64,000 nt of DNA, from positions 1 to 64,000 of IMG/VR virus record IMGVR_UViG_3300049573_000219. The stretch is one strand, 5' to 3'. Each line of letters starts with the position of its first letter. Position 1 is the stretch's first letter. Made by a program: the position numbers and the translations under genes. A model generated the notes under the pieces. That model was given only the letters and a program-made list of their open reading frames with translations. It had not been told where the DNA came from and made no database searches. Shown in pieces: positions 23,172 to 26,801 of this stretch. The DNA is from a virus (taxonomy: Duplodnaviria; Caudoviricetes).

Positions 23172-23812
23172 GGGGCGCCAGGAGGGCGGCTTCCGTTCTG
23201 GCCGCAAGCGCACTGGTGGCGGCACTCTGTACGGGTGCATCTGCGGGGAAGGGTGAAGTCGGCGAAGAGCCTGTCGCGCGGTCCGCTCAGCGCCAGCAGG
23301 TGAGGATCGAGCTTCCGCCGCTCAAGCGGATCGACCCCACTCCGGAGCCGTCTCCGACCGCGAAGCCCTCGGTCACCCCCACGGCGAAGTCGACCTTCCG
23401 GCCGAAGCCCGCAGCGAAGCCCCGGGTGCGGCCGACTCGCACGGCGAAGAAGGAGCGGCGCCCCGTCGAGCAGGTGACGAGGATCGGCGGGTACGCGTAC
23501 TGCGGATCGACCGTCCCTGCGGCGCAGAGGTGCATCGATCAGGGGAAGCTGACGCTGTACTACCCGGCTGGCGTGAAAACGCTGGCAGGTCACAACTACA
23601 TGGGGTGGTACTGGATGGACGACCTGCCGGTGGGCCGGAAGGTCGTCATCTCCTCGGGCGGCCTGGCGGGGACCTACCGGGTGTACGGGCACGGCTGGGC
23701 GAAGCGCGGCAGCCAGGGAGGCACCTTCCCGGCGTCGGGGCTGGGGGCCTCCGTAGCGCTCCAGACCTGCACCAGCACGGGGACGGGCTTCTCGTTCCTC
23801 CGGCGCCTGTGA
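23168..23812 (+). CDS. Secreted/anchored sortase-like protein
   Basis: Signal-like N-terminus, Pro/Lys-rich linker, LAGHNY and LQTC motifs. Confidence 0.55.
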   Translation: MRGARRAASVLAASALVAALCTGASAGKGEVGEEPVARSAQRQQVRIELPPLKRIDPTPEPSPTAKPSVTPTAKSTFRPKPAAKPRVRPTRTAKKERRPVEQVTRIGGYAYCGSTVPAAQRCIDQGKLTLYYPAGVKTLAGHNYMGWYWMDDLPVGRKVVISSGGLAGTYRVYGHGWAKRGSQGGTFPASGLGASVALQTCTSTGTGFSFLRRL

Positions 23813-23909
23813 GCGGGTGAGGTTACTCACCGAAAACCGCTACAGAAAAGCGAAGTTCTGCGGTAGAGTAGTACTTGTAGCCGGGAGGGGAAGCCTTCCC
23901 GGCAGGCAA

Positions 23910-23985
23910 AGGGATATAGCTCAGCTTGGCCAGAGCAACCGTCTCCAAAGCGGTGTTTGCGCAGGTTCGAATCCTGCTATCCCTG
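23910..23985 (+). tRNA. tRNA-Trp(CCA)
   Basis: AGGGATA/TATCCCT acceptor, CTCCAAA loop, GGTTCGAATCC. Confidence 0.9.
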
Positions 23986-24031
23986 CTGGACCCCGGGGTT
24001 ACAACCCCCCCGTCACCCTGGGGTCCTTTAC

Positions 24032-24108
24032 CGGAATGTAGCTCAGCTTGGTTTAGAGCGCTCCGTTCGGGACGGAGAGGCCCGCAGGTTCGAATCCTGT
24101 CATTCCGA
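24032..24108 (+). tRNA. tRNA-Pro(CGG)
   Basis: CGGAATG/CATTCCG, CTCCG-TTCGGGA-CGGAG. Confidence 0.92.
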
Positions 24109-24309
24109 CTGGACTCCGGGCGGCGTATCGGAAGTACCTCTTTCCCTTACGACGTCGTCCACTCCGTCCGGAGTCCTCAGTTCTCGCTGCCAGTTGTCCT
24201 TCTTTTCGGAAGGTCGACATCCCGCAGGGATGGCATCCTGCGAAGGGGAAACCTGTCCACCGATCGGTGCGAGAGGGTCGGTCAAAGTACCGGGCAGAGT
24301 TCCCCGCCC

Positions 24310-24382
24310 GCCTCCGTAACTCAGTCGGTAGAGTGCTTCCCTCGTAAGGAAGATGCCGCAGGTTCGATTCCTGTCGGGGGCT
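24310..24382 (+). tRNA. tRNA-Thr(CGT)
   Basis: GCCTCCG/CGGGGGC, CTTCC-CTCGTAA-GGAAG. Confidence 0.92.
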
Positions 24383-24536
24383 CGAAGGTGCGGTGCGGAC
24401 TCATAATCCGTAGCCGTATGCCGGTGGAAGGTGCGGGAGGACAGACCCGACTGGAAGCAAGGCAGACCCCTGGTGGAACGCTGTCCCGGGAAGCCAGGGG
24501 TTCCTGTGAAATCGGGACGAGAAAGAGGGTGCGATC

Positions 24537-24653
24537 GTGACCTGCAAGTGCAAGGCTCGGACGTACGAGGGGCACCTGAAGAAGGTGCAGCAGGACGGAT
24601 ACCCTACCCATGTCTACACAGGTCACTACTGGAGCCCCAAGGACGACAAGTAA
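24537..24653 (+). CDS. 38-aa microprotein inside the tRNA array
   Basis: GAAAGAGGG RBS, GTG...TAA, MTCKCKARTYEGHLKKVQQDGYPTHVYTGHYWSPKDDK. Confidence 0.45.
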   Translation: MTCKCKARTYEGHLKKVQQDGYPTHVYTGHYWSPKDDK

Positions 24654-24666
24654 AACTGAAGAACGC

Positions 24667-24739
24667 GCGCCCTTAGCTCAGTTGGCAGAGCAGGGGATTC
24701 TTAATCCTCGTGTCACTGGTTCAAGTCCAGTAGGGCGTA
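24667..24739 (+). tRNA. tRNA-Lys(CTT)
   Basis: GCGCCCT/AGGGCGT, GGGGA-TTCTTAA-TCCTC. Confidence 0.9.
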
Positions 24740-24749
24740 CGCAGAACAA

Positions 24750-24824
24750 CGGGATGTGGCCCAGTTCGGATGGGGCAACCGACTACGGATCGGAAGGACG
24801 GGGGTTCAAATCCCTCCATCCCGG
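24750..24824 (+). tRNA. tRNA-Arg(ACG)
   Basis: CGGGATG/CATCCCG, CCGA-CTACGGA-TCGG. Confidence 0.85.
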
Positions 24825-24850
24825 CTCGACAACTCAATAGCAAAAATCAT

Positions 24851-25330
24851 GCGCCTGTGGAGGAGTCTGGAGTCCTCGCCGGTCAAGTCAGAGAGAAGAA
24901 ATGAATCCAACAGAAAAGGGCGTTAGAACAGAAGGTATCATCCTTTCGGCCCTATTGAAGAAGGGCTACAGGGTACTCCTTCCGTTCGGTGGAGGTTCCC
25001 GTTATGATCTCGTTTACGAGGAAGATGGGAAGTTCATCAGGGTGCAGTGCAAAACTGCAACCTATGCAAACGGATGCGTAGTTTTTAATTCGAGATCCGT
25101 GAGCAGAGATGGGCAGAATCTTCACTACGCCGGAGATTGCGATGTCTTCGGTGTTTACTGCCCCGATCTGGACTCGACCTACCTTGTTCCCGTGGAGCTT
25201 GTAGCCAAGGGTAAGGGTAGTCTTCGAGTGGAAGAGCCCAGGGTAACGAGAACCTTGCAGGCTCTCTGGGCGAAGGACTTTGAACTGACGTAAGCGGAGA
25301 TTTTCGCGGGTTCAAATCCCGTCAGGACCG
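24851..25330 (+). tRNA. Interrupted/chimeric tRNA (Asp-like 3' half) split at the anticodon by an endonuclease ORF
   Basis: 5' half 24851-24891 (acceptor strand, D arm GAGG/CCTC); 3' half 25285-25330 (GCGGG-TTCAAAT-CCCGT T arm, CAGGACC-G). Confidence 0.7.
24901..25293 (+). CDS. PD-(D/E)XK endonuclease, group I intron-associated type (I-Ssp6803I-like)
   Basis: KG..TE....AL...GY.V..PFG...RYDLV.....FIRVQCKTA...Y...CDVFGVYCP..YLVP; low GC. Confidence 0.85.
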   Translation: MNPTEKGVRTEGIILSALLKKGYRVLLPFGGGSRYDLVYEEDGKFIRVQCKTATYANGCVVFNSRSVSRDGQNLHYAGDCDVFGVYCPDLDSTYLVPVELVAKGKGSLRVEEPRVTRTLQALWAKDFELT

Positions 25331-25477
25331 CTGGCTTCGGAGGCAGATCTCGCAGGGTTCGCGGCTCACGCCGCTACCTGGGAGGCAGAGAGTGAGGCAA
25401 AGCGAGTCCACGAGCCAACCTTCTCCGGGAGGCGACTGGAGGGCGGCCCCTGCCCAGCTATATCTCAAGGGGTGCAC

Positions 25478-25554
25478 GGCCCTGTAGCTCAGTTCGCGTA
25501 AGAGCGCTCGCCTGAAAAGCGAGAGGTTCGCCGGTTCGAATCCGGCCGGGGCCA
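25478..25554 (+). tRNA. tRNA-Phe(GAA)
   Basis: GGCCCTG/CGGGGCC, CTCGC-CTGAAAA-GCGAG. Confidence 0.92.
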
Positions 25555-25668
25555 CTGGCCGGACGGTAAGCTATCGACGCAGCCCCACTGTGGCGGGTGG
25601 GACATACGCGCGAAGATAGCCCATGCGTGGAAGCATTGCCGTCCGGTTGCCGACAATTTCATAGTCGA

Positions 25669-25740
25669 TCGCCCGTAGTTTAACTGGCAAAACTCCGGCC
25701 TCTGGAGTCGGCGTTCTTGGTTCAAATCCAGGCGGGCGAG
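25669..25740 (+). tRNA. tRNA-Gln(CTG)
   Basis: TCGCCCG/CGGGCGA, CCGGC-CTCTGGA-GTCGG. Confidence 0.9.
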
Positions 25741-25814
25741 CTGCGCCGGACCGGCACGTTGAGTGGTCCGTAACCAGTCGGTCGCATGCGACCGGTCCGG
25801 CGCGAACAAGTCAA

Positions 25815-25887
25815 TCCCTCGTAGCTCAGTTGGCAGAGCATTCGATTGTTAATCGACAGGTCACTGGTTCGAGTCCAGTCGGGGGAG
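25815..25887 (+). tRNA. tRNA-Asn(GTT)
   Basis: TCCCTCG/CGGGGGA, TCGA-TTGTTAA-TCGA. Confidence 0.9.
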
Positions 25888-25978
25888 CGTGTGCCGACGA
25901 CACCATGTCCTTCCGTGGTCTGAAAAACCCGGTCGGACTCACAGTCGGTGGTAAAGGGTCGTGGTGCGCAACACGGCC

Positions 25979-26074
25979 GCGCGTGCAAGCGAACCCGAGT
26001 CAGAGCCCGGCGAACAGGGCACTCGGGCGGAGCTGGGGAGACGTCCCGTGCGAGTTCGAGCCTCGCCACGCGCA
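25979..26074 (+). ncRNA. tRNA-like RNA lacking a canonical anticodon arm
   Basis: Perfect acceptor GCGCGTG/CACGCGC-A and T arm GCGAG-TTCGAGC-CTCGC; non-canonical middle. Confidence 0.6.
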
Positions 26075-26176
26075 CTCAGGAAGAAGCCCGTCGCAACGGA
26101 AGGGAATGGGCGATGAACAGCCTGACCGGATTCACCTAGGACCGCGAAATACGCGGCCCTAGGAGGATGATTTCCG

Positions 26177-26572
26177 ATGGGCAAGACCGCACACCACACG
26201 CCGGAGAAGTTCGACCGGCGAGAGTTCCCCGACGGCTACCGGATGTACTGGCGTGGCCGTCCGCTCGTTCCGGTGCGCGAACACACGGTGTACGACCTGG
26301 ACTTCAGCGCCTCTGAACTCCGGAAGGCGCAGCGGGAGGGCAGGCGTCCTCAGCCTCGGAAGATCCGGCGCACTGCCCGCTGGTGGACCTACACGGGGGC
26401 GTGGACTCCCAGCTCCAGCCGTACCTACTGGGCCGACAAGAACGAACGGTCGAACAGGCGGTACGTGAAGAGTGTGCTGAACGCAGGGCGCCGGACCAAG
26501 GGTGAACTCGAAAGGCGCCTGTACGAAAAGGCAGAGAAGACCCCTCGCCGGATGCTGTACGACATCTGGTGA
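26177..26572 (+). CDS. Arg-rich hypothetical protein
   Basis: AGGAGG RBS, 131 aa. Confidence 0.7.
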   Translation: MGKTAHHTPEKFDRREFPDGYRMYWRGRPLVPVREHTVYDLDFSASELRKAQREGRRPQPRKIRRTARWWTYTGAWTPSSSRTYWADKNERSNRRYVKSVLNAGRRTKGELERRLYEKAEKTPRRMLYDIW

Positions 26573-26584
26573 GGCAGCAGGGAT

Positions 26585-26657
26585 GCTCTCGTAGCTCAGG
26601 GGATAGAGCACTGGATTCCTAATCCGGGTGTCGCAGGTTCGAATCCTGCCGGGAGCA
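26585..26657 (+). tRNA. tRNA-Arg(CCT)
   Basis: GCTCTCG/CGGGAGC, CTGGA-TTCCTAA-TCCGG. Confidence 0.92.
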
Positions 26658-26801
26658 CGGCGGAGCCACCGCGTCACGCCGGGCGCGAATGGGTGCGAAG
26701 AGGCCAACTCCAGTGATCTGCGTGGCGGCTCTCCTGGTGAAAGATCTCGCACGGTCGAGGCTATACGGCCCCCGCGTTCTTGTATCGGAAGGGGAAGAGG
26801 A

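Follow-up and report, generated by a model that had tools for sequence, protein, structure and literature searches.

The locus described here lies in a window of 64,000 nucleotides, which covers positions 1 to 64,000 of the IMG/VR virus record IMGVR_UViG_3300049573_000219 (Duplodnaviria; Caudoviricetes), a 187-kb virus genome with terminal repeats. Synteny was observed with Frankenweenie (85% identity), Quantum, Kradal, and Satis, all of them Streptomyces phages. A tRNA array on the plus strand spans positions 23910 to 26658. Between the gene for tRNA-Arg(acg), which ends at position 24825, and the gene for tRNA-Phe, which begins at position 25478, the array contains a split tRNA-Asp gene and an endonuclease ORF. 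A tRNA 5' half, an endonuclease ORF and a tRNA 3' half were found where an initial annotation of the sequence had placed them, and the following features were distinguished (L numbers denote loci used for comparison).

24851–24881, plus strand: tRNA-Asp(GTC) 5' piece, GCGCCTG TG GAGG AGTCTGGAGT CCTC G CCG, comprising the 5' strand of the acceptor stem, the D arm, nt 26 and the first three nucleotides of the anticodon stem (nt 1–29)
24882–24900, plus strand: left junction and leader, GTCAA GTC AG AGAGAAGAA, where the intact allele has CCCT GTC in the alignment
24887–24891, plus strand: 5' strand of a residual junction helix, GTCAG, formed by the anticodon and the first two insert bases, which pairs with CTGAC
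24901–25293, plus strand: homing endonuclease gene, 130 amino acids, PD-(D/E)XK, I-Ssp6803I family (PF11645, E 9e-33; 2OST, E 1e-6)
25285–25289, plus strand: 3' strand of the residual junction helix, CTGAC, in the last ORF codons, giving five consecutive Watson-Crick pairs
25290–25330, plus strand: right junction and tRNA-Asp 3' piece, consisting of GT, AA (the stop codon overlaps nt 37–38), G-CGG with one G missing, an 8-nt variable region, the T arm, the 3' strand of the acceptor stem and the discriminator G
25327–25329, plus strand: recombinant patch ACC at tRNA nt 70–72, of the Frankenweenie/L016 type (TGC in the L019 allele)

The slot between the genes for tRNA-Arg(acg) and tRNA-Phe contained an intact tRNA-Asp(gtc) gene in every syntenic relative, including Frankenweenie, Quantum, and L014 to L019, and judged from this shared gene order, chance is excluded as an explanation for the match of the two tRNA-Asp pieces to the intact gene of the relatives. 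The endonuclease insert was absent from Frankenweenie, Quantum, Kradal, Satis, and L014 to L019, and is thus sporadic among close relatives. No second tRNA-Asp gene was found anywhere in the 187-kb genome.

It was also noted that the Arg-Asp spacer of L017 (IMGVR_UViG_3300042137_000018, positions 2400 to 2860) contained an HNH-type endonuclease-like ORF (with the motif CANCHLKRT) that ended about 20 nt upstream of the intact tRNA-Asp gene, which suggests that this slot may be a hotspot for different homing endonucleases. In the segment from 24310 to 24740, where the relatives have genes for tRNA-Thr(cgt) and then tRNA-Met(cat), the window contained a single tRNA that aligned to both of these neighbors, as if adjacent tRNAs had recombined, and the Met gene was missing. 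Outside the window, a gene for an Rnl2-type RNA ligase (PF09414, E 5e-19) was identified at positions 175142 to 175729 of the genome (G000), where it adjoins four minus-strand ARAGORN calls at 176 to 178 kb, including one for "tRNA-Pyl(cta)" (G000:C1:175142-178013).

The protein encoded by the ORF matched the PF11645 profile over residues 1 to 129 of 130 with a score of 113.6 bits, compared to a cut-off of 26.1 bits, and aligned to I-Ssp6803I (PDB 2OST) with an E-value of 1e-6, including the YDLV...VQxK motifs (YDLV...VQVK in 2OST). All of the residues that were invariant in the family, D36, R47, V48, Q49, and K51, were retained in a comparison with 20 homologs, and D36, Q49, and K51 constitute the catalytic D...(E/Q)xK core. 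The GC content of the ORF was 50.6% and its GC3 value 55%, as compared to 66.6% GC for the genome and GC3 values of 82% to 86% for the neighboring ORFs. The ORF is intact and foreign in composition, in agreement with its first description as a low-GC gene for a PD-(D/E)XK nuclease of 130 amino acids.

The closest homolog, protein P0002, was 73% identical in sequence, and in the protein tree the window protein was sister to the protein of L009 (71% identity) within a clade whose members abut tRNA-Asp genes. A TANNNT hexamer just upstream of the start codon is typical of leaderless actinobacterial transcripts, and such a hexamer was located 6 to 8 nt upstream of the ATG or GTG in all seven tRNA-Asp-associated sisters (L009, L010, L023, and L040 to L043), but was absent before the start of the window ORF. 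Neither a promoter-like site for the ORF nor a flanking terminator was found. Since the leaderless-type –10 box of the sisters is missing, the endonuclease is probably translated from a read-through transcript of the tRNA array.

The 5' piece was identical at 31 of 31 positions to the intact tRNA-Asp(GTC) of L019 and differed by one base from that of L017. The 3' piece (25294–25330; GCGG AGATTTTC GCGGG TTCAAAT CCCGT CAGGACC G) starts directly after the ORF and was identical to the L019 allele at nt 40–69; overall, 33 of 36 bases were the same, with differences at nt 70–72 (ACC versus TGC). The relatives contained two highly divergent tRNA-Asp alleles, one of which, the Frankenweenie type, begins with GGTCTCG and ends with CGGGACC, while the other, with its unusual D stem (GAGG/CCTC) and a variable region of 8 nt, was found in L019 and L017, with more distant versions in L015 and Quantum. 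By alignment, both pieces are tRNA-Asp and belong to one L019-type allele. The 3' half had already been described as Asp-like, and the comparison assigned it to tRNA-Asp(GTC) of the L019 allele, with neither half being tRNA-Met. An origin of the 5' half from tRNA-Met was ruled out by alignment to the Met and Asp genes of the relatives and to the intact L019 allele. The suggestion in the initial annotation that the halves come from different tRNAs had to be abandoned, as both represent one tRNA-Asp allele and only nt 70–72 and the downstream spacer come from another.

The ACC at nt 70–72 breaks the pairs 2–71 and 3–70, so that the acceptor stem is paired at five of seven positions. This count had been given before and was borne out, although its cause is not the joining of two tRNAs but probably a crossover near nt 67–70, which brought in the last three acceptor bases of the second allele. 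The spacer just past the 3' piece reads GGCAGA in both the window and Frankenweenie, compared to GGCGGA in L019, and the segment from 25304 to 25840 was 93% identical to L016, which has the Frankenweenie-type allele, and 88% identical to L019. The presence of L019-type exons in an L016/Frankenweenie-type backbone is a pattern that, in this single case, is compatible with co-conversion of the flanks.

The intact allele reads CCGCC CTGTCAA GGCGG, whereas the window reads CCG GTCAA GTC AG... on the left and ...CTGAC GT AA G-CGG on the right. Compared to the intact allele, the exons have CCCT replaced by GTCAA, an extra GT, the loss of one G, and the two acceptor mismatches, and the window copy thus departs from a clean insert behind nt 36 with undamaged exons. 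The junctions would be accounted for by an insertion at that point, the site used in other family members, followed by small changes, and a short GTCAAG/GTAAG duplication around the insert would fit the sequence equally well. Under either reading, 3 bp of the anticodon stem remain. The 19-nt leader (24882–24900) holds the anticodon triplet and a purine-rich, RBS-like tract. ARAGORN with introns allowed gave no call for the tRNA-Asp in the window, because its anticodon arm is damaged, and at relaxed stringency produced only a spurious tRNA-Ser.

The absence of an intron core, and of room for a ribozyme, as originally claimed, was confirmed by covariance model searches and by the length of the insert. 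A cmscan search of positions 23800 to 26800 at E ≤ 10 revealed no intron family and no Intron_gpI match, whereas Intron_gpI was recovered with 79.1 bits beside a homologous ORF in Runella (L145), which served as a positive control. No group I or other ribozyme was found in the Enterococcus phage EFP01 (E ≤ 10) or, at E ≤ 0.1, in 19 further loci that were ORF-only or related. The insert is about 410 nt long, of which 393 nt are ORF, with no more than 19 nt preceding the ATG and no sequence following the stop codon, and since the ORF is as long as those of its free-standing sisters (130 to 131 amino acids), there is no spare sequence that could hide a group I core. [quoted passage not shown] A group I intron in the anticodon loop of the tRNA-Asp gene was rejected on these grounds, there being no core, no U(–1) or omega-G, and no room for a non-coding core of about 200 nt.

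To place the locus in the context of its family, homologs and their nearby tRNAs were located in 108 viral and metagenomic loci. The ORF ended no more than 15 nt from, or overlapped with, the 5' end of an intact tRNA in 49 of the 108 loci, and in other surveyed loci a complete tRNA ended 0 to 40 nt upstream of the start codon. The tRNAs of the nearest relatives (57% to 71% identity) were not split; instead, an intact tRNA-Asp adjoined the gene, in some cases together with leftover tRNA halves. In the tree, all other members of the clade of the window protein flanked an intact tRNA-Asp, and in L009 and L040 the endonuclease gene and the tRNA-Asp form a free-standing cassette. The order in L023 and L042 was a full tRNA-Asp, the gene, and a tRNA-Asp 3' remnant, which in L042 started exactly at A37, while the order in L105, L026, L083, and L008 was a tRNA 5' half, the gene, and a full tRNA-Asn; in L105, this half stopped precisely at the anticodon. 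In L068, the gene was located between a pseudo-tRNA and a tRNA. The remnant edges at nt 36/37 in L042 and L105 implicate the anticodon as the place of cleavage or as a recurrent breakpoint. The surveyed family shows every intermediate, from clean splits, through a half and a whole tRNA in either order, to genes joined directly to an intact tRNA at its 5' end, and the arrangements suggest that intact tRNAs have been regained beside the endonuclease gene in many relatives.

We also noted that the overlap between the ORF and the next tRNA was very often exactly 10 nt (L008, L009, L026, L040, L041, L043, L048, L049, and about 20 more), with bases 8–10 of the tRNA (TAG) serving as the stop codon of the ORF. 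Cleavage by RNase P at the 5' end of the tRNA would strip the mRNA of its stop codon at these loci, so translation and tRNA maturation may compete. Two homologs that were otherwise intact, in L035 (position 1855) and L122 (position 1240), contained one in-frame TAG each at positions where the relatives have Q or K, and these phages may read TAG as glutamine. All 16 candidate matches in bacterial chromosomes were on MAG contigs, several of which were short or carried phage-like tRNA arrays.

A separate clade in the protein tree, 35% to 41% identical to the window protein, splits tRNAs repeatedly and cleanly after nt 36. In Enterococcus phage EFP01, a clean ORF-only insertion of 463 nt follows nt 36 of the tRNA-Asn gene; this insert was present in 1 of 31 related Schiekvirus records, while the tRNA-Asn was intact in 29 of the 31. 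The same build was observed in the IMG/VR and MAG loci L035, L037, L122 to L125, L130 to L137, L142, and L143, in tRNAs read as Thr/Asn, Lys, Glu, and others, and the exons were perfect in most of these clean-split relatives. No group I match was found in the split-clade loci. In an alignment of 16 instances in one ungapped register, the last three bases of the insert were the reverse complement of the anticodon and the next 5 to 7 bases paired with the first bases of the insert. This rod was paired at 145 of 160 positions (128 Watson-Crick and 17 G.U pairs, with only five A.C), and several columns contained three or four different types of Watson-Crick pairs. The rod is coaxial with the anticodon stem, the two junctions of the clean relatives lie 3 bp apart across the helix, and a second helix extends to the stop codon.

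The covarying rod of the distant clade is real, and it could act in the processing or stabilization of the mRNA, in the control of translation or in splicing that depends on proteins. A full closing rod (TCTGCTTTGTC.../...GACAAAGCAGA) without an acceptor, D or T arm was seen between tRNA-Leu and tRNA-Ala in L127 (positions 1150 to 1650), which indicates that the rod does not need the tRNA frame. Near two of the split-tRNA loci, cmscan reported a RAGATH-33 match of 110.9 bits, just below the cut-off of 120.4 bits (L136, 2165–2295), and a drum RNA match of 52.2 bits, above the cut-off of 43 bits (L142, 556–654).

The window protein falls outside the split clade and branches with the clade that abuts tRNA-Asp. 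Homologs that are repeatedly flanked by tRNA halves with a covarying junction helix, as looked for in the initial annotation, were observed only in this different, distantly related clade of the family. Five base pairs in the window, GTCAG/CTGAC, are in the same register as the rod, and the second helix is absent. A longer pairing of 24879–24891 with 25285–25297, as originally proposed, exists as written with 10 of 13 positions paired, but was part of neither the minimum free energy structure nor the centroid of the 481-nt RNA. The junction helix as the dominant fold was thus rejected, and the 5' piece pairs differently in the predicted structures. The 481-nt RNA folded better than shuffled sequences (z –4.4). 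Duplex energies between the flanks were discarded as a discriminator, as GC-rich controls folded equally well. The helix also differs from the bulge-helix-bulge of archaeal and eukaryal tRNA introns in that it is continuous, lacks the 3-nt bulges and is located at nt 36/37 rather than 37/38; to our knowledge, there is no bacterial EndA.

Taken together, the most plausible explanation, which we consider likely, is that the insertion of a ribozyme-less homing endonuclease disrupted the only tRNA-Asp gene of the phage, so that the tRNA is now a pseudogene and the endonuclease gene resides inside its presumed target. Of the options originally put forward, an intron-less homing element that destroys a tRNA of the array is favored by the lack of a ribozyme, the foreign and intact ORF, the decayed exons, the recombinant 3' acceptor and the intact gene in the relatives. 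The enzyme is predicted, from its family and from the junction positions in the relatives, to cut the DNA of the anticodon stem-loop of tRNA-Asp(GTC) genes that are still intact in related phages infecting the same cell. Repair of the break would use the endonuclease-bearing genome as its template, with homology arms provided by the tRNA pieces and their flanks, and would copy the endonuclease gene and the adjacent exon sequence into the recipient. The mosaic 3' acceptor may be the record of one such recombination, in which an L019-type tRNA with the insert entered a Frankenweenie/L016-type backbone with a crossover at about nt 67–70. The tRNA-Asp would not be restored at the RNA level, and the phage would presumably rely on the tRNA-Asp of the host. 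The regaining of intact tRNAs beside the gene in many relatives and the decay of the exons here favor an unspliced over a spliced tRNA.

A counterpoint to the insertion account is that the clade of the window protein sits beside, and not inside, tRNA-Asp, so the split form could be a one-off recombination accident rather than the result of regular homing into the anticodon. A free-standing cassette of the endonuclease gene and tRNA-Asp, similar to those of L009 and L040, would have recombined illegitimately with the resident tRNA-Asp, followed by a deletion, the normal site being beside the tRNA. The sister relationship with L009, the clade members that abut or directly follow an intact tRNA-Asp, the messy junctions, the loss of the –10 box of the sisters, and the other half-tRNA permutations in L023 and L042 would all be expected from such an event. 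However, a single L019-type allele accounts for both pieces, which show no other alteration over 31 and 30 bases and are more readily explained by one interrupted gene than by two separate events, and the remnant edges at nt 36/37 in the relatives mark the anticodon as a recurrent breakpoint. We hold the accident to be unlikely.

The surviving 5 bp of anticodon plus AG with CTGAC hint at a constraint at the RNA level for which the insertion account has no need. A tRNA-like frame that is cut out by RNase P and 3' processing enzymes could protect the endonuclease mRNA, or the helix could control translation, both without splicing. Such a role would explain why the rod and the second helix to the stop codon are kept in the distant clade, and the rod register of the 5 bp and the z-score of –4.4 in the window are in line with it. 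It is nevertheless quite unlikely here, as the acceptor stem in the window pairs at only five of seven positions, the predicted fold uses the 5' piece differently, the window protein belongs to another clade, and L127 has a rod without a tRNA body. The two remaining proposals of the initial annotation, a tRNA-scaffolded mRNA and a protein-spliced or trans-spliced tRNA intron, found no support in this copy, given the state of its acceptor, the 3-bp anticodon stem, a fold without the junction helix and closest relatives that are not embedded in tRNAs.

There is also a slight chance that phages carry a so far undescribed class of tRNA introns, which lack a ribozyme and are removed by proteins, and that the window copy descends from this class in decayed form. 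I-Ssp6803I is said to cleave with a 3-nt 3'-overhang, and with junctions 3 bp apart across a continuous helix, the two exons could be released by a nuclease that acts as a dimer, either an RNase of the host or the PD-(D/E)XK enzyme itself, and resealed by an RNA ligase. We consider splicing very improbable for the rod-bearing class and even less probable for the window copy, which, if such a class were real, would represent the outcome once that constraint is lost. Least credible is that the insert is cut out of the RNA of the window copy, either by a host RNase or by the action of the encoded enzyme on the rod, and that an RNA ligase then reseals a working tRNA-Asp: the junction spacing and mostly perfect exons of the clean relatives and the Rnl2-type RNA ligase of the phage speak for it, but even exact excision would leave two mismatches in the acceptor and an anticodon stem of 3 bp, the phage genome lacks RtcB, and the intact tRNAs regained beside the gene in relatives argue that the split form is costly.

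I-Ssp6803I was reportedly described by Bonocora and Shub in 2001 in connection with a group I intron in the tRNA-fMet gene of Synechocystis PCC 6803. The window gene resembles it (2OST) in its PF11645 family, its location in a tRNA anticodon loop and its presumed target, the DNA of the anticodon stem-loop, but differs in the lack of a ribozyme and of U(–1) or omega-G, in the damage to the tRNA and in residing in a phage array rather than a bacterial chromosome. With the free-standing endonucleases of phages, of which T4 has 12 genes (PMC3943268), it shares the lack of a self-splicing element, a phage setting (here the tRNA array), sporadic occurrence and flank mosaicism resembling co-conversion. 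Those genes, however, are located between genes and cut a neighbor, whereas the window gene lies inside its presumed target and inactivates it, and the nuclease folds differ, that of the window protein being PD-(D/E)XK.

Similar in build are the rod-bearing, ribozyme-less inserts in EFP01 tRNA-Asn and in L037 and L122 to L136, which belong to the same Pfam family and are likewise ORF-only insertions at the anticodon with a tail complementary to it (GAC versus GTC in the window). In contrast to the window copy, with its rearranged junctions, 5-bp rod and broken exons, these inserts follow nt 36 cleanly, with intact exons and a two-helix rod, and encode proteins of another clade (35% to 41% identity). 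In the arrangement known as "fractured genes" (PMC2677866), a homing endonuclease gene is likewise located between two pieces of a host gene, and split inteins rejoin the protein products; the product in the window is an RNA, and no mechanism of rejoining is evident. Literature searches on I-Ssp6803I and PF11645, phage tRNA introns, and interrupted tRNA genes, with subscription journals largely outside their coverage, returned group I and archaeal cases only and no ORF-only tRNA inserts.

According to textbook reasoning, a homing endonuclease gene can persist within a conserved gene only when it is concealed by an intron or intein (PMC3943268). [quoted passage not shown] To the family, the window adds a tRNA-Asp case of high GC content, whose protein is from another clade and for which intact alleles are available in syntenic relatives, with a recombinant acceptor and visible decay. 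Phage tRNA arrays thus offer a view of selfish genes as they disrupt, duplicate, and replace tRNA genes. The window copy is of value because of the intact alleles in its syntenic relatives and, as what is probably the decaying and unspliced extreme of the family, is informative for the question of whether clean members are introns or tRNA killers.
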